NCBI GenBank assembly: GCA_963749915.1
Contig: CAVVOP010000021.1
Location: forward strand, 96,001 to 160,000
Length of the DNA stretch: 64,000 bases
Source of the DNA: an uncultured cyanobacterium
Lineage (GTDB): Bacteria > Cyanobacteriota > Cyanobacteriia > Cyanobacteriales > Cyanobacteriaceae
Direction: 5' to 3'
Shown: positions 14,244 to 22,430 of the stretch, one piece after another
Layout: the number at the start of each line of letters is the position of its first letter
Numbering within the stretch: the first letter of the stretch is position 1
Translations under genes and position numbers: made by a program
Notes under the pieces: generated by a model
What the model was told of the DNA's origin: nothing
What the model saw: only the letters and a program-made list of their open reading frames with translations
Databases searched by the model: none

Positions 14244-15200
14244 ATGAACCAACAAACCCTCAAAGCTTATCTCGATTTAATTCAAGGACTTTTGAGTTGT
14301 CCCAGAGGAGAAGAATGGATACTGCTAAGACAGAATGAAGAATTGGTTAATCCTGAACTAGTAGAAGTGATGGAACAAGTCGCCAGTCATTTAGCCATAG
14401 AAGGTCAAATCAAAGCAGCTAAGTATTTGCACAACTGGGCAGGGAAACTGCATCATATTTTGACAGAGAATGTTCCCACTCCCAAAAATAATAACGATAA
14501 AACCAAAGCCTATCTGGAACTTATCGAAGCCTTACTCAGTTCTCCCAAAGGTTCTGAAGAGGAAATTTTGGCAGCCCATCAGGAGTTAATCGGTCCAGAA
14601 TTAGTCAAGATCATGAAACAAGTCGCTAGTCAGATCGCAGCCGAAGGAGATCAAGAAAAAGCTAATTTGTTAAATAATTTGGCTACAGAGTTAAACAGCA
14701 CTTGGCTTAAAAACCATGAATTTCAACCGACTCTAAAAAAAGAGGTGGCTGCCGATCCTTGGTTAGAGGAGAATTCTCCACCAACACATCCATCAGAAAC
14801 AAAAACGGAAACAGAAACAAAAACAGAAATAGAAACCCAACCAACCGAAAATGAAATACCAGCGGTGGAAGAACCCGTAAGCCCATCTTCCGAACCGAAA
14901 ACTTCGAGGGAGGTACAACTGGCAGAACAGCTGGAGAAGATCGCCGATTCTTTAGCCAAGTTAGAAACCACCTTAGCTTCGCGACTGCAAGTATCAAACC
15001 CTTTATGGTATATGGATATTCTCGAAAAAGCCGAGACGGCCAACTGGATCTTAACCACTGATGAAATAGAACATTTAATCGGTATTAAACCCCAATGTCA
15101 TCACGAGGAGACTTCTTACCACAGAGGTAGCTGGATATTTATTAAAGCAGGAAAAATTGGCCCACAGACGGGCTGGCAAGTTAAGAAAGTTTCCGCCTAA
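14244..15200 (+). CDS. Hypothetical protein with two tandem helical repeats, an acidic linker and a C-terminal domain
   Basis: 318-aa ORF; internal repeat KAYLDLIQGLLSCPRGEE / KAYLELIEALLSSPKGSE. Confidence 0.8.
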   Translation: MNQQTLKAYLDLIQGLLSCPRGEEWILLRQNEELVNPELVEVMEQVASHLAIEGQIKAAKYLHNWAGKLHHILTENVPTPKNNNDKTKAYLELIEALLSSPKGSEEEILAAHQELIGPELVKIMKQVASQIAAEGDQEKANLLNNLATELNSTWLKNHEFQPTLKKEVAADPWLEENSPPTHPSETKTETETKTEIETQPTENEIPAVEEPVSPSSEPKTSREVQLAEQLEKIADSLAKLETTLASRLQVSNPLWYMDILEKAETANWILTTDEIEHLIGIKPQCHHEETSYHRGSWIFIKAGKIGPQTGWQVKKVSA

Positions 15201-16064: not shown

Positions 16065-16781
16065 ATGTCCGTGAATACATTAAAAATTGATGGTATTGAC
16101 GTAGCGGTAGAATCTGGTACATCAATATTAAAAGCCGCCCAAGAAGCGGGGATAAGGATTCCCACTCTCTGCCATTTTCAAGGGGTTTCCAATGTGGGAG
16201 CTTGTCGTATGTGTTTAGTGGAAATTAAAGGTAATTCTAATCTTGTATCGAGTTGCGTGACTGAGGCCCAAGAAGGGATGGAAGTTATTACTCGAACAGA
16301 GCAGTTACAAGAATATCGCAAAATGATTATAGAATTGCTTTTTGCTGAAGGTAATCATGTTTGTGCGGTATGTGTTGCTAACAATAATTGTCAACTGCAA
16401 GATATAGCAATTGAAGTGGGGATGGATCATACAAGGTTTAATTATCGTTACCCCCAAAGGGATGTTGATTTATCTCATCCGCAATTTGGCATTGATCATA
16501 ATCGCTGTATCCTCTGTACTAGATGCGTTCGAGTCTGTGCTGAAATTGAATCTGCCCATGTTTGGAATGTGGCATTTCGAGGGGCAGCGGCGAAAATCAT
16601 TAGTGGTTTGAATCAGCCTTGGGGAGAGGTATCCGCTTGTACTTCCTGCGGTAAATGTGTGGATGCTTGTCCTACGGGTAGTATTTTCCGTAAAGGTGAT
16701 ACCGTAGCGGAAACGGAAAAAGATCGTGATGAAATTGAATTTTTGAATAGAGCACGGGAGAAACATCAATGGACAAGATAA
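16065..16781 (+). CDS. hoxU: Bidirectional [NiFe]-hydrogenase diaphorase small subunit
   Basis: IPTLC..GACRMC 2Fe-2S motif, HVCAVC..C, CILCTRCVRVC and CTSCGKCVDACP 4Fe-4S motifs; overlaps hoxY start. Confidence 0.96.
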   Translation: MSVNTLKIDGIDVAVESGTSILKAAQEAGIRIPTLCHFQGVSNVGACRMCLVEIKGNSNLVSSCVTEAQEGMEVITRTEQLQEYRKMIIELLFAEGNHVCAVCVANNNCQLQDIAIEVGMDHTRFNYRYPQRDVDLSHPQFGIDHNRCILCTRCVRVCAEIESAHVWNVAFRGAAAKIISGLNQPWGEVSACTSCGKCVDACPTGSIFRKGDTVAETEKDRDEIEFLNRAREKHQWTR

Positions 16782-17317
16782 GATTTGCAACGGTGTGGTT
16801 GGCTGGTTGTTCGGGTTGTCATATGTCATTCCTGGATCTAGATGAGTTTTTATTCGATGTTGCCGAGGCGGTGGATGTAGTTTATAGTCCTGTTGCTAGT
16901 GACATCAAAGAGTATCCCGACAATGTTGATATCTGTCTCGTGGAAGGTGCCATCGCCAATGAGGAAAATTTAAAATTACTATTGAAAGTAAGACAACGCA
17001 CTAAATTTTTAATTTCCTTCGGGGATTGTGCTGTAACTGCCAATGTGCCAGCTATGCGCAATATGTTAAACGGTACAGATCCAGTTTTAAAACGTTGCTA
17101 TTTAGAGTTAAGCGATGATTCGGGACAAATACCAAAAGACTCCGACATTGTACCGGAATTATTGGAAAAAGTACAGCCCATTCATCACCTGATAGATGTG
17201 GATTTATTCTTGCCGGGTTGCCCTCCTTCCGCCCAAAGAATCAAAGATGCCATCGCACCTCTGTTAAAAGGAGAAAGACCAGTCATGGAAGGGCGAGAAA
17301 TGATCAAATTTGGTTAA
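16769..17317 (+). CDS. hoxY: Bidirectional [NiFe]-hydrogenase small subunit
   Basis: WLAGCSGCHMSFLD, FGDCAVTANVPAMRN, LPGCPP. Confidence 0.96.
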   Translation: MDKIRFATVWLAGCSGCHMSFLDLDEFLFDVAEAVDVVYSPVASDIKEYPDNVDICLVEGAIANEENLKLLLKVRQRTKFLISFGDCAVTANVPAMRNMLNGTDPVLKRCYLELSDDSGQIPKDSDIVPELLEKVQPIHHLIDVDLFLPGCPPSAQRIKDAIAPLLKGERPVMEGREMIKFG

Positions 17318-17362: not shown

Positions 17363-18112
17363 ATGGAAAATTCCACAGAATATATTACAACTCTTATTTC
17401 CTTACATCGGGGTTTAAAGCGTCAAGGACCTGGGGATGATAACTTATCTCATCAAATACTGAATAGTTTAAATTTACCAGTTCAACCAAAAATAGCTGAT
17501 CTAGGATGTGGAAGTGGAAGTGCATCCATATTACTAGCTCAGTTTTTTCATAGTCCAGTCATCGCCTTAGATATATCTGATTCCTTTCTGAAAGAGCTTA
17601 CAAATCGAGCTAAAATATTGAACCTAGATCATTTGATTACTCCTATTCAAGGAGATATGGCAAAGTTAGGCTGGTTGCCTAATTCTTTTGATTTATTTTG
17701 GTCTGAAGGGGCAGTATATAATATAGGGTTTGAAAAGGCTTTACATCTTTGGCGACCATTTTTAAAGGAAGGTGGCAAGGCAGTCATTTCCGAGATTAGC
17801 TGGTTTGTTCAAGATATTCCCGACAAACTTTTTGAATATTGGCACTCGATATATCCGAAAATAGCTACGGAGGAACAAAATATCTCTTTTGCCGAAACTG
17901 CCAATTTTAAAGTTCTTAACACTTATCGATTGTCTAGTCATTCTTGGTGGAAAAATTACTATAATCCCTTAAAAATAAATATAGAAAAATTTAATTCGAA
18001 CACTGATCCTATGAATCAATTAGTCATTAGTGAATTTGAGTCAGAAATGAATTTATTTAAAAAATATAGTGATTTCTATGGATATACTTTTTATGTTCTT
18101 CAAGCCTCTTAA
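17363..18112 (+). CDS. Class I SAM-dependent methyltransferase
   Basis: RQGPGD, IADLGCGSG, FDLFWSEGAVYNIGF, YGYTFYV. Confidence 0.88.
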   Translation: MENSTEYITTLISLHRGLKRQGPGDDNLSHQILNSLNLPVQPKIADLGCGSGSASILLAQFFHSPVIALDISDSFLKELTNRAKILNLDHLITPIQGDMAKLGWLPNSFDLFWSEGAVYNIGFEKALHLWRPFLKEGGKAVISEISWFVQDIPDKLFEYWHSIYPKIATEEQNISFAETANFKVLNTYRLSSHSWWKNYYNPLKINIEKFNSNTDPMNQLVISEFESEMNLFKKYSDFYGYTFYVLQAS

Positions 18113-18204
18113 AAACTGAATAAGAGCCTTGATCACTTACCATAATTAAGATATTTGTAAAAAAAATAAGGATTATTTTAAATACTAATAATAAGGAGAT
18201 AAAA

Positions 18205-18846
18205 ATGCTTTTAGCCCTAGAAAAAATTAATGTTTTAGAAGGACAAACTCTTGTTATTAATGATGTCAATTGGCAACAGTTTGAGGAAATTTTATTAGAA
18301 TTAGGAGAACATCGCAATAGTAAAATCGCTTATTACGATCAAACTTTAGAAATTATGAGTCCATTACCAGAACACGAGAGCGATAAAGTTTTAATTACTA
18401 ATATTTTAGAAATTTTATTAGAAGAACTTGATATAGAATTTTGGAGTTTGGGTTCCACTACTTTTAAAAGCGAATTATTGCAAAAAGGACTAGAACCCGA
18501 TAACTGTTTTTACATTCAAAATGAAGCTAAAATTAGAGGTAAAAAAAGGATAGATTTAAGTATCGATCCTCCTCCTGATTTAGCCTTAGAAATTGACCTA
18601 ACTTCTCGTACTTATCCTAATATTTATTTAGCTTTAGGAGTTCTTGAATTATGGCGTTTTGAACAGAACAATTTACAAATAAATATTTTGGACAATGGGC
18701 AATATATTCAACAAGAATTTAGTCCTATTTTTCCAAATATTCCCATTAAAAAATTAATTCCTGAATATCTTTATAAGTGTAAAATAGAAGGAAGAAATAA
18801 AACGTTAAAAGCCTTTAGAAATCTGATTAAAGAATATATAAAATAG
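18205..18846 (+). CDS. Uma2 family (DUF820) putative endonuclease
   Basis: LEIMSPLPEHE, GLEPDNCFYI, PPPDLALEIDLTS, LGVLELWR. Confidence 0.92.
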   Translation: MLLALEKINVLEGQTLVINDVNWQQFEEILLELGEHRNSKIAYYDQTLEIMSPLPEHESDKVLITNILEILLEELDIEFWSLGSTTFKSELLQKGLEPDNCFYIQNEAKIRGKKRIDLSIDPPPDLALEIDLTSRTYPNIYLALGVLELWRFEQNNLQINILDNGQYIQQEFSPIFPNIPIKKLIPEYLYKCKIEGRNKTLKAFRNLIKEYIK

Positions 18847-18903: not shown

Positions 18904-20334
18904 ATGTCAAAAACTATTATCATTGATCCCGTTACCCGCATCGAAGGACACGCTAAAATATCCATTTATTTAGACGACAATGGACAAGTAAATGATGCTC
19001 GTTTTCATGTGGTAGAATTTCGGGGTTTTGAAAAATTTTGTGAAGGAAGACCAATGTTTGAAATGGCGGGAATTACCGCCCGAATTTGTGGAATTTGTCC
19101 TGTCAGCCATTTACTCGCTTCTGCGAAAACTGGGGACAAAATTTTAGGAGTAAAAATTCCTCCCGCAGGAGAAAAGTTACGACGGTTAATGAATTTAGCA
19201 CAATTAACTCAGTCTCACGCTCTTTCTTTTTTTCACCTTAGTAGCCCTGATTTTCTCTTGGGTTGGGACTCTAATCCTTCTACCCGTAACGTTTTTGGTT
19301 TGATGGCGGCTGATCCCGACTTAGCACGGGCAGGGATTCGTTTACGCGCTTTTGGACAAAATATCATTGAATTACTCGGAGCAAGAAAAATTCATGCGGC
19401 ATGGGCAGTCCCCGGGGGAGTGCGATCGCCGCTTACTCCGGAAAATCGTCAATGGATTGAGGATAATCTGCCGGAAGCTAAGCAAACCACAGAATTAGCC
19501 TTAAATCTCTTTAAAAGGCTCTTAGATAGGGAATTAACCACGGAAATCAACGTATTTGGCAACTTTGATTCTTTGTTTATGAGTTTGGTTGCCCCGAATG
19601 GTAATTGGGAACATTATGGGGGACATTTGCGTTTCGTTGATAGTCAGGGTAACATCGTCGCTGATGGCTTGAGTGAAGATAATTACAACGACTTTTTGGG
19701 GGAAGCGGTAGAAAATTGGTCGTATCTCAAATTCCCCTACTATAGTCCTTTGGGCTATCCTGATGGTATTTATCGAGTTGGTCCTTTGGCACGCTTAAAT
19801 GTCTGCGATCGCATCGGTACACCCCAAGCAGATCAAGAATTATGGGAATTTCGCCATCGGGCAGGAGGGCGTATAGCTACTTCTTCATTCTTCTATCATT
19901 ACGCTCGACTAGTTGAAATTGTCGCTTGTTTAGAGGCGATCGAGAACTTGATAAACGATGCTGACATTTTGTCAACCAGAGTACGTGCGGAGGCAGGAAT
20001 CAACTATTTAGAAGGCATTGGGGTAAGTGAAGCACCCAGAGGCACACTGTTTCACCACTACCAAGTGGATGACAATGGCTTAATCAAAAAGGTAAACCTA
20101 ATTATTGCCACTGGACACAATAACCTTGCCATGAATAAAACCGTCACCCAAATCGCTAAACACTATATTAACAGTACGGACATTTCCGAAGCTATGTTAA
20201 ACCGTGTAGAGGCGGGAATTAGAGCATTTGATCCCTGTTTGAGTTGTTCCACTCATGCCATCGGACAAATGCCATTACACATCGAATTAGTGGATTGTGA
20301 GGGGAAAATTATCAAGGAAATTTATAAAAATTAA
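18904..20334 (+). CDS. hoxH: Bidirectional [NiFe]-hydrogenase large subunit
   Basis: [10 protein letters not shown]1 [11 protein letters not shown]2 DPCLSCSTH plus C-terminal extension. Confidence 0.97.
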
Positions 20335-20363
20335 TTGACAAATAATCAGGTTTGTAGTGAACT

Positions 20364-20392
20364 CTTGAGGGCAAAAAAAGCCTCAAGCTTTT
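20364..20392 (+). terminator. Hairpin after hoxH (weak terminator or transcript-stabilising stem)
   Basis: CTTGAGG (20364-20370) pairs with CCTCAAG (20381-20387), followed by CTTTT. Confidence 0.4.
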
Positions 20393-20421
20393 ACTGCGAA
20401 ACTTATATAGGAGTCAAAATT

Positions 20422-20679
20422 ATGATCAAAGAAAACTTATATTTATGTATGGGTTCGGCCTGTCATCAACTGGGGGTTTATGAAGTTTTACCTAAGCTAC
20501 AATCTTTGATTAAGAAACATAATCTTAACAGTAAAATTGAATTAAAGGGATCATTTTGTTTAGAAAGTTGTAGCTCAGGAATTGTGATGAAATTTAGGGA
20601 TAAACACTTTGTTGGCATCAGTCCTCAGAATTTAGAAGATAAATTTGTGAAAGAAATATTACCCATGATTAAAAAATAA
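20422..20679 (+). CDS. Thioredoxin-like [2Fe-2S] ferredoxin (NuoE-C/HfsA-like), 85 aa
   Basis: CMGSAC (Cx4C) and ELKGSFCLESC (Cx3C); AGGAG RBS at 20409-20413 before ATG 20422. Confidence 0.85.
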   Translation: MIKENLYLCMGSACHQLGVYEVLPKLQSLIKKHNLNSKIELKGSFCLESCSSGIVMKFRDKHFVGISPQNLEDKFVKEILPMIKK

Positions 20680-20709
20680 AAATAGATAATAAAAATTTAA
20701 TAATTAAAT

Positions 20710-21210
20710 ATGTTGGAAAGTAGCCAAAATCATCTTTATCAATTATTATGGGAATATGACCCTAACGCCTTAATTGCCACAGATTCTGAATTAATAATTA
20801 AATTAGTAAATCCATCTTTTTGTCAACTATTTAAAATAGAAAATACTGAGATAATTGGTCAATTGGCCATCGATATATTAGGAAATATTGAGCATATAAA
20901 AGAGGCATGGGAAAAAAATCAGGTAATAAAAAATAGAGAGACAGAATATTTAAAACATAATATTATTGTTAAAGAATTTATTTTTCCTATTCAAGAAGAA
21001 AATTTTATTTTGTGCATTATGACGGATATAACCGCTGAAATACGGCAACAGAAAGAATTAAAAGAAATGCAGGAAGAAATGATCAATAAAGTGAATAAAG
21101 TTGTCCATAATCAAATGAAAGTTGCCCAAGAAATAGCAGGATTATTAGGAGAAACCACCGCAGAAACTAAAGTTACTTTATTTAAACTGTTAGAACTTTT
21201 TAACAAATAA
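20710..21210 (+). CDS. Stand-alone PAS-domain protein resembling the C-terminal part of sensory [FeFe]-hydrogenases (HfsB/HydS)
   Basis: PAS start DPNALIATD..VNPSFCQLF, PAS end IMTDIT, then helical tail QMKVAQEIAGLLGETTAETKVTL. Confidence 0.8.
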   Translation: MLESSQNHLYQLLWEYDPNALIATDSELIIKLVNPSFCQLFKIENTEIIGQLAIDILGNIEHIKEAWEKNQVIKNRETEYLKHNIIVKEFIFPIQEENFILCIMTDITAEIRQQKELKEMQEEMINKVNKVVHNQMKVAQEIAGLLGETTAETKVTLFKLLELFNK

Positions 21211-21263
21211 CTATTTAGTCTCTTATTTATTGTTAATTTTTTATTGTTTATGTAACTAAACTT

Positions 21264-22430
21264 ATGATAGAAGATAATTTTTTCGATATTTATTATTATA
21301 GTTTAAATAAACAAAATGAAGAATTATGTGGTGATCAAGTAAAATTTACTAAAACGGAAACAAAAAGTACCATCGTACTTTCAGATGGCTTAGGAAGCGG
21401 TGTTAAAGCTAGTATTTTAGCCACTTTAACCACCGAAATACTAATTACGATGCTCGATGCAGATTTGCCCCTCAAAGAAGTCATCGAAACCATTGTTGGC
21501 ACCTTACCCATTTGTCAAGTAAGAAATATTGCCTATGCAACTTTTACTATTATTAGCCTTGATCACATTACCAATAAATTTCATGTAATTAACTTTGATA
21601 ATCCTCCTATTTTTCTTCTAAAAAGGGGGATTATTGTACCCTTGCAACATCAAACTGAACAAATATTAAACAAAAAAATTAACTCCTGTCAAGGCCTCTT
21701 AGAAAGAGGCGATTTTTTAGGGGCGGCGAGTGATGGAATTCTCTATGCCGGTTTAGGAAATACCATGAATTTTGGTTGGGGTTGGGAAAATATTGCTAAA
21801 TTTATGGAAAATATTTTTCGCAATAAAGCCACTAATTCTCGTTATATTATTGAGCAAATTATTAATGAAACTAAAAAATTATACTGTGATCATATTGGCG
21901 ACGATGCCACTTTTGTCGGGGTATATATTCGTAAACCTAAACCGTTGATGATTTTTACAGGACCTCCATTAGATGTTACCAGAGATGAAGAATATGCGGA
22001 ACAATTATTGAGTTTTCCCGGCAGAAAAATTATTTGTGGAGGCACCACTGGTAATATTGTCGCCAATTATATGGGAGAAACCATCGAAATGGATATTATG
22101 ACGATGAGTAAAGAATTGCCACCCATTGGTAAACTGAAAGAAATTGATTTAGTTACCGAGGGAATTTTAACTATTTCTAAAGCAAAAGAAGTATTAATTA
22201 AATGTAAATTTGATATTACTAGATTACCTACTATCAAAAATGGGGCGGTATTATTAGCTAGAGAAATTTTAGAAGCTGACTCAATTTATTTCTTAGTTGG
22301 ACAACAAATTAATGAATTTTATCAAAATCCTTTGTTACCAAAAAATATATCTATTCGTCGTAGTTTAATAGAAGATTTAGTACAGCTTTTACGCAACCAT
22401 CAAAAACAAATTATTCTTGAATATTGTTAA
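21264..22430 (+). CDS. SpoIIE/PPM-family Ser/Thr phosphatase (HfsC-like)
   Basis: LCGD, SDGLGSG, SDG, GDDAT metal-binding motifs; C-terminal domain with TGPP, ICGGTT, LVTEGILT. Confidence 0.88.
   Translation: MIEDNFFDIYYYSLNKQNEELCGDQVKFTKTETKSTIVLSDGLGSGVKASILATLTTEILITMLDADLPLKEVIETIVGTLPICQVRNIAYATFTIISLDHITNKFHVINFDNPPIFLLKRGIIVPLQHQTEQILNKKINSCQGLLERGDFLGAASDGILYAGLGNTMNFGWGWENIAKFMENIFRNKATNSRYIIEQIINETKKLYCDHIGDDATFVGVYIRKPKPLMIFTGPPLDVTRDEEYAEQLLSFPGRKIICGGTTGNIVANYMGETIEMDIMTMSKELPPIGKLKEIDLVTEGILTISKAKEVLIKCKFDITRLPTIKNGAVLLAREILEADSIYFLVGQQINEFYQNPLLPKNISIRRSLIEDLVQLLRNHQKQIILEYC

Follow-up and report, generated by a model that had tools for sequence, protein, structure and literature searches.

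A stretch of 64,000 nucleotides from an uncultured cyanobacterium of the family Cyanobacteriaceae (assembly GCA_963749915.1, contig CAVVOP010000021.1, positions 96,001 to 160,000), hereafter the window, carries directly behind the [NiFe] hydrogenase gene hoxH three small genes, which encode a ferredoxin (A), a PAS protein (B), and a phosphatase with an extra domain (C). The initial annotation of this DNA had announced the trio as a candidate new system, whereas it proves to be a variant of a known and genetically studied cassette, HydS/Hfs, without its H-cluster domain. The trio stands outside the sensory [FeFe]-hydrogenases and most likely works like their output half. The chances are judged to be about even that it forms one signalling unit, which responds to redox state and not to H2, acts as an accessory of the Hox hydrogenase, and splits electrons between H2 and ethanol.

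Relation to the HydS/Hfs cassette

The reference for the comparison was the annotated pRUMAL01 cluster of Ruminococcus albus 7 (rex-adhE-phosphotransferase-fd-fd-hydS-phosphatase-hydA2), a group C sensory [FeFe]-hydrogenase cassette, which served as a proxy for the Hfs/HydS proteins of Thermoanaerobacterium and Thermotoga, since hydS was described as homologous to hfsB (PMC5707799). The ferredoxin, HydS, and phosphatase of this cluster each retrieve the window gene as the best match in its own genome, and A, B, and C group with the HydS/Hfs cassette and not with generic PAS or RsbU proteins, as had been predicted. The order ferredoxin, PAS protein, phosphatase is common to hfsA-hfsB-hfsC(-hfsD), the R. 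albus cluster, and the trio, and the trio is likewise linked to adhE, which in R. albus sits inside the cluster. However, the partner of the trio is the [NiFe] Hox enzyme, and no catalytic [FeFe]-hydrogenase (HfsD/HydA2) was found beside it at the locus. The supposed lack of any [FeFe]-hydrogenase or maturase in the genome agrees with the searches made, in which the [FeFe] H-domain family PF02906 and HydG gave no match and HydF none above the cut-off, HydE not being searched; PF02906 was also found in none of the 10 trio-bearing cyanobacteria searched.

The three proteins

Protein A possesses the ligands C9-x4-C14 and C46-x3-C50, which all 42 aligned homologues share without change. Its match to the Pfam family 2Fe-2S_thioredx lies below the cut-off (18.9 bits, E 1.5e-3), but with its profile thioredoxin-like [2Fe-2S] domains of solved structures are matched with E values as low as 4.7e-18, so that by its Cx4C...Cx3C ligands and this profile match A is identified as a thioredoxin-like ferredoxin with a predicted [2Fe-2S] cluster. 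It matches the two R. albus [2Fe-2S] ferredoxins at 36% and 31% (E 4e-16, reciprocal best). The best solved match of the profile is the C-terminal domain of Thermotoga maritima HydA (residues 568-642 of 7p5h_A, E 4.7e-18, the next match being 2.6e-9), which is nine orders better than HydC/NuoE; unlike this domain, A is a free protein. According to the accessible part of the structural study, the HydA domain is mobile, is electronically isolated in the structure, and docks onto the two-[4Fe-4S] C-terminus of HydB (PMC9499530). In one locus from Omnitrophota (L026:2186-9149) the genes hydC-hydB-hydA and rex are followed by A-B-C, and the HydA encoded there has an A-like C-terminal domain.

Protein B carries a PAS_9 domain (E 4.7e-7) and matches residues 409-553 of R. 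albus HydS (29%, E 1e-17, reciprocal best). Among its 120 best longer relatives, 118 contain PF02906 and none contains the SpoIIE family PF07228. By sequence comparison B thus corresponds to the C-terminal part of HydS/HfsB, about 150 amino acids with the PAS domain and the tail, and it lacks the H-cluster domain, the N-terminal [4Fe-4S] pair, and PF04060, which are all present in R. albus HydS; its open frame of only 168 codons is too small for the missing domains. The terminal motif quoted in the initial annotation is indeed there, near the C-terminus and not at it, since 11 residues follow. Residues Q140, I142, A143, L146, G147, and E148 of the tail are invariant in 65 rows, and the tail is likely an output helix or a phosphorylation site. 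Its comparison with the RsbU linker, where 18 of 33 phosphatase loci met the motif filter, gave the expected register and no significance (P 0.08, probability 0.7%). A predicted complex of C with two copies of B scored 0.30 against a mark of 0.32, its controls were not folded, and it is not used here as evidence.

In protein C the SpoIIE domain is recognized at residues 34-220 (E 2.3e-14), and the metal ligands D24, D41, D157, D213, and D214 are conserved in 98-100% of 133 homologues, while the motifs GPP, CGGTT, and VTEG of the extra domain are mostly kept in 77-100% of them. The structural model (predicted local distance difference test, pLDDT, 95) begins the PPM domain at strand 1 (residues 6-14) with no N-terminal linker helix; this domain matches SpoIIE 5mqh in Foldseek (E 5.5e-14) and 5ucg_A in structure comparison (Z 24.0, root-mean-square deviation (rmsd) 2.9, 215 aligned). 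Fold and conservation agree with the earlier description of C as a PPM/SpoIIE phosphatase with intact metal motifs and an additional domain, and by fold and metal aspartates C is a SpoIIE-like PPM/PP2C phosphatase of predicted activity. It aligns with the R. albus phosphatase over the full length including the extra domain (37%, E 4e-81, reciprocal best), and its closest named relatives are from Geminocystis (95% and 91%).

The extra domain, 165 amino acids at residues 224-388 of C, was modelled alone with pLDDT 92.7. No Pfam family matched it, and a PDB sequence search returned nothing under E 0.36. Among 48,161 chains its top 11 structural matches are all of the NuoG/formate dehydrogenase/Fwd/Fhc/Nap type, the best being 7awt_G (Z 9.1, rmsd 4.0, 122 aligned, 4% identity), and they are followed by other nucleotide-binding Rossmann-like folds; the DUF1537 nucleotide-binding domain, considered as a candidate identity, is not among the 50 structural matches listed nor among the Pfam matches. 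The matching region of the NuoG/formate dehydrogenase-type enzymes binds the dinucleotide end of the molybdopterin cofactor. The extra domain is a probable sensor of a nucleotide or dinucleotide. In the ESM Atlas there are unnamed clusters of 151-156 amino acids resembling it, which may be stand-alone forms or fragments, and one genome (G005, L002:12089-12736) contains a second, partial copy of C consisting mainly of this domain. Frameshifts in B and C were noticed in the trio of one locus (L042:7457-9145).

Among known phosphatases the PPM fold of C is closest to SpoIIE and RsbX. The layout of RsbP, as given in the accessible part of PMC12143880, is a PAS domain, a coiled helix, and a PPM domain, which in the trio is split over two genes. 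Unlike RsbU and RsbP, C has an extra C-terminal domain and no N-terminal linker, and the trio cluster contains no STAS or RsbW gene. Elsewhere in the same genome three clear RsbW-like, eight STAS, and three other SpoIIE matches are present, none of them linked to the trio, and in the loci examined no co-conserved kinase or STAS gene stands beside it. This last observation would also suit another interpretation, namely that C is a small-molecule phosphatase or bifunctional enzyme with a catalytic extra domain, where G259, E299, G300, and T303 are invariant as in an active site. However, the close structural matches of the N-terminal domain are all Ser/Thr protein phosphatases, and the PAS partner together with the hfs genetics described below point to regulation, which makes such an enzyme quite improbable.

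Association with Hox in cyanobacteria

The class-wide sample included 401 cyanobacterial genomes. C was found in 32 of them, belonging to 23 genera (31 full-length copies and one remnant), and hoxH in 141; all 32 C-bearing genomes have hoxH, while none of the 260 hoxH-less genomes has C. Recurrent linkage of the trio to hox, which the initial annotation had anticipated, is therefore confirmed in other genomes. The start of C lies at most 2 kb from hoxH in 26 of the 32 genomes, at most 5 kb in 28, and on another contig in four. The usual order is hoxE-F-(hcp)-U-Y-H-A-B-C-hoxW-hypA-hypB. A and B were each detected in 42 of 44 C-bearing genomes and in none of six C-lacking relatives, and the three genes are retained even when far apart (genomes G006, G010, and G015). 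Of 19 relatives within the family of the window, three of them less than 90% complete, 9 carry C and 10 carry hoxH; the exception has hoxH in two pieces. The trio occurs also in Arthrospira, Limnospira, and Planktothrix and, in total, in about a quarter of the sampled Hox-bearing cyanobacteria.

Eight trio-lacking HoxH sequences, chosen among those most like the query, scatter at several places among the trio-bearing ones, and this nesting fits repeated loss of the trio. Such loss, together with a remnant of C behind hoxH in genome G454 (C64:1331-1645), where A and B were not found, could indicate that the trio is a passenger of the hox operon with no current role. Against this, the three genes are intact and single-copy even when dispersed, identity within the class is 62-96% and the metal ligands are conserved, and the genes were never found without hoxH, so a mere passenger is very improbable.

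Relatives outside cyanobacteria and origin of the trio

The short trio was also detected in 15 non-cyanobacterial loci from Chloroflexota, Verrucomicrobiota, Desulfobacteraceae, Armatimonadota, Omnitrophota, and one planctomycete, with C identity of about 50-58% and one locus frameshifted. In a FastTree phylogeny 25 short B proteins are separated from 63 HydS ends by one branch with support 100. In the trees of C the cyanobacterial proteins form a clade (17 rows, support 98) nested among the C proteins of the non-cyanobacterial short trios. The loss of the H-domain accordingly came before the trio entered cyanobacteria. The rewiring of an anaerobe cassette within cyanobacteria, proposed in the initial annotation, is thus not upheld, as the form without the H-cluster is a multi-phylum clade in which cyanobacteria are only one nested part. 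One Desulfobacteraceae genome (G718, loci L011 and L117) carries a full HydS cassette in addition to the short trio.

A relative of C at 29-37% identity is present in 133 small genomes from another class of the same phylum, presumed here to be Gastranaerophilales and their kin, and in five loci fetched from that class it stands beside a full HydS. Inheritance from the ancestor of the phylum was tried as an explanation and rejected, since a clade uniting cyanobacterial C with the HydS-linked C of these non-photosynthetic relatives obtained p-AU 1e-6 (31 rows). In the non-photosynthetic part of the phylum one family (f44) has the C homologue in 132 small genomes; in the four loci fetched from it, ferredoxin-HydS-phosphatase precedes a second [FeFe]-hydrogenase, and the HydS tail there differs from the common Thr-Thr motif.

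A HoxH-type subunit (48-67% identity) was found in 14 of the 15 non-cyanobacterial short-trio genomes, with hoxE-F-U-Y-H-like clusters in all 11 fetched from those 14, four of them larger and more distant, while PF02906 occurs in three of the 15. In the sole genome without HoxH the trio is placed behind hydCBA and rex. Five Chloroflexi loci have it after hoxE-hoxF-like genes, without a hydrogenase subunit in the vicinity. From these HoxH, hydCBA, and hoxE-hoxF contexts it can be considered that the constant partner of the trio is an NAD-linked multimeric hydrogenase with a NuoEF-type module. In four Chloroflexi loci (L015, L019, L021, and L028) the gene order is GAF histidine kinase, LuxR regulator, (CBS), hoxE-hoxF-like genes, and then A-B-C, and a hydrogenase cluster with its own NuoEF-type genes is located elsewhere in the genome.

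The same contexts bear on the proposal of the initial annotation that Hox gives the trio an H2/redox input by way of A, here taken as a true H2 sensor in which Hox would provide in trans the H2 signal that in HydS comes from the H-cluster domain. Such a sensor would be expected to depend strictly on a hydrogenase, as the trio does, and A resembles a domain that T. maritima and locus L026 have as part of catalytic HydA. Nevertheless, hydrogen input through Hox is unsupported, as no H2-binding domain is left in the trio; the five Chloroflexi loci with hoxE-hoxF-like genes alone point to the diaphorase or NAD(H) side, and the accessible parts of the literature (PMC11376134, PMC10055695) state that how HydS itself passes on its signal is unknown. 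Hydrogen sensing by the trio is accordingly regarded as improbable.

Link to adhE and fermentation

In the class-wide sample adhE is present in 30 of 32 C-bearing genomes, in 36 of 109 other hoxH genomes, and in 99 of 260 hoxH-less genomes, these counts including matches with internal stops. When only the 77 genomes with the most similar HoxH are compared, the proportions are 30/32 in C-bearing and 19/45 in the remaining genomes. In genus g99 many adhE matches have internal stops, which may be broken genes or an artefact of match ends. In genomes G555 and G506 the gene separates hoxH from A; in G443 it directly follows hoxH, in G028 it directly precedes A, and in G524 it is part of the hox cluster. 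The genome of the window contains adhE and PFOR, and PFL was not found in it. A fusion gene CBS-CP12 was noticed between hoxY and hoxH in G555 (L090:7312-7923), and CBS genes also occur upstream of hoxE in Chloroflexi trio loci.

The genetic evidence for the cassette comes from Thermoanaerobacterium saccharolyticum, where deletion of hfsA or hfsB increased adhE transcript and ethanol, an effect that requires hfsC and hfsD, where deletion of hfsB raised hydrogenase activity, and where deletion of hfsC resembles that of the hydrogenase hfsD (PMC5707799). HfsC is described as phosphatase-like in the accessible part of PMC11837493. The hfsB and hfsC phenotypes are also compatible with another explanation, in which the trio gates Hox post-translationally, by maturation, activation, or re-activation after O2, without a wider regulon, and A reports anoxia or Fe-S status. 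It gains from the short distance between C and hoxW, at most 170 bp with several overlaps in 15 of the 22 class-sample genomes examined (10 of the 32 being outside this count), and from the invariant partner being Hox and not adhE. However, when HoxE, F, U, Y, H, and W of trio-bearing and trio-lacking genomes were compared (31-43 vs 4-8 sequences), four positions marked the trio-bearing genomes and none of these is a Ser/Thr, and the order hoxH-hoxW-hypA-hypB is unchanged in trio-lacking genomes. Gating of Hox alone is thus considered rather unlikely.

Proposed mechanism

For the redox signalling unit the following sequence of events can be suggested. Because no H2-binding site is left in the trio, the input would be the redox state of ferredoxin and NAD(P)H, the pool from which Hox is supplied under dark anoxic conditions. 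The [2Fe-2S] cluster of A may equilibrate with reduced ferredoxin or with the HoxEFU diaphorase, B would relay the state of A to C via the PAS domain and the conserved tail, and the Rossmann-like domain of C may contribute a nucleotide input, for example NAD(P)H/NAD(P)+. By analogy with the T. saccharolyticum genetics, A and B would restrain the C-dependent output, which would move fermentative electrons between H2 (Hox) and ethanol (AdhE) through enzyme activity or expression.

A broader version can be offered as a tentative possibility, on the doubtful side. Here the core of the HydS cassette would be a reader of hydrogenase state that needs no binding of H2, with A docking on a NuoEF-type diaphorase, the PAS helix switching the phosphatase in trans, and the extra domain of C, as a dinucleotide-binding domain not described before, reading NAD(P)H. 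The coupling of this reader to [NiFe] Hox, in five or more phyla, would go back to a single ancient loss of the H-cluster domain, and the cyanobacterial reader would be the missing post-translational switch between H2 and ethanol in dark fermentation.

Several observations weigh against the redox signalling unit. In the literature searched no experiments on any H-cluster-less trio were found, and the T. saccharolyticum hfsA deletion is polar on hfsB-D (PMC5707799). Searches of the window's genome for Rex and for a homologue of the R. albus phosphotransferase found neither, hence the candidate relay parts of the anaerobes appear to be missing; the phosphotransferase was also found in none of five other genomes, in a search without a positive control. 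No HydB-type docking domain for A was found on HoxF. For the extra domain the structural match is modest in Z score and identity, Foldseek returned nothing at E 0.001, and a shared fold shows no ligand. Since 4 of 16 further trio-bearing cyanobacteria and 13 of 15 non-cyanobacteria have no adhE, this gene is not obligatory, and Hox itself works without C, as 109 of the 141 hoxH genomes lack it. Finally, the genomes are related and not independent, so the counts overstate independence and are given without P values.

Organization of the locus and its transcription

The coordinates of the features are collected in Table 1; the open reading frames, their strand, and the gaps of 87, 30, and 53 bp (hoxH-A, A-B, and B-C) had all been given correctly in the initial annotation. 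A, B, and C are each single-copy in this genome, which is 100% complete in 34 contigs. The genes hoxE and hoxF are outside the window; the other four contigs with genes of this operon carry hoxE-hoxF with hypC, hoxW-hypA-hypB, hypE-hypF, and hcp. With hox-hyp genes spread over five contigs, the genome has a broken-up hox operon. In the close relative G001 the genes from hoxE to hypF are unbroken with the trio inside, and on contig C22 of the window's genome transposase-like open reading frames, judged by eye, adjoin hypB. In most relatives the gap between hoxY and hoxH is less than 200 bp, unlike the window with its two inserted genes; contigs from RNA libraries of related strains also span this insertion. 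Upstream of hoxU an open reading frame of 318 amino acids at 14244-15200 has no Pfam match.

Table 1. Features of the hox-trio locus (positions in the window) and hox-hyp pieces on other contigs of the same genome (G000)
Feature	Position	Strand	Basis or remark
hoxU, diaphorase Fe-S subunit	16065..16781	+	NCBIfam NF005745 HoxU above cut-off, E 3e-120
hoxY, small hydrogenase subunit	16769..17317	+	Pfam Oxidored_q6; position; genes between hoxU and hoxH of relatives at 63-80% identity
Two-gene insertion between hoxY and hoxH	17363..18846	+	Pfam; outside the module
S-adenosylmethionine (SAM) methyltransferase, first inserted gene	17363-18112	+	Pfam
Uma2 protein, second inserted gene	18205-18846	+	Pfam
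hoxH, [NiFe] large subunit	18904-20334	+	Pfam NiFeSe_Hases
Intergenic stem-loop hoxH-A	20348..20404 (core 20364-20387)	+	z -4.2
A, 85 amino acids, stand-alone thioredoxin-like [2Fe-2S] protein (predicted cluster), HfsA-like	20422-20679	+	
B, 166 amino acids, PAS domain, coiled helix, and conserved tail	20710-21210	+	
B tail, residues 133-157	21106..21180	+	most conserved stretch of B
C, 388 amino acids, predicted PPM phosphatase with 165-amino-acid extra domain	21264-22430	+	
C N-terminal PPM/PP2C phosphatase domain	21264..21932	+	predicted structure, fold matches, metal Asp
C C-terminal Rossmann-like domain	21933..22430	+	predicted structure; no Pfam family
Scattered hox-hyp pieces	C33:4977-7562, C22:407107-408822, C5:465368-468756, C34:18924-20567		

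The hairpin noted earlier between hoxH and A is real, but it is unlisted by the terminator scan. The sequence of this spacer is unconserved between genomes, and other genomes often have unrelated hairpins there; the structure is probably a transcript stabiliser or a partial stop that would lower A-B-C relative to hoxH. The promoter scan was uninformative (32 sites vs 28 expected). RNA data comprised nine runs, each containing at most 0.06 of the words of the sequence, and four of them were examined. In run X1, which is from a related strain, one contig covers the end of hoxH together with A, B, and C at a depth of 16 vs 46 for a hoxH contig; contigs do not prove a transcript, and this is only a weak hint.

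Relation to known regulation and significance

The accessible parts of the literature describe LexA, cyAbrB1/2, and RpaA as DNA-binding regulators of Hox in Synechocystis 6803 and Synechococcus 7942 (PMC4264147, PMC13421787), and the trio shares with them the same target enzyme; a 2026 review, in its accessible part, names only cyAbrB and RpaA for hox (PMC13421787). A ferredoxin-PAS-phosphatase trio is unlisted in the hox operons as described in the accessible parts of the reports on Synechocystis 6803 (PMC4264147) and Lyngbya majuscula (PMC2674450, Table 1), and no such genes are named for L. aestuarii in that of PMC3858816. No account of the cyanobacterial trio was met in the literature searched, subscription papers and supplements (e.g., the Arthrospira tables) being mostly out of reach.

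In summary, the trio points to a layer of Hox control which the hox operons known from the common model strains do not contain. It represents a natural form of three small proteins without the O2-labile H-cluster, from which the output step, with the action of A and B on C, the ligand of the extra domain, and the substrate, could be rebuilt in vitro. Since deletions of hfsA and hfsB redirect fermentation in a thermophile, the trio may also be relevant for the yield of H2 or ethanol in cyanobacteria.

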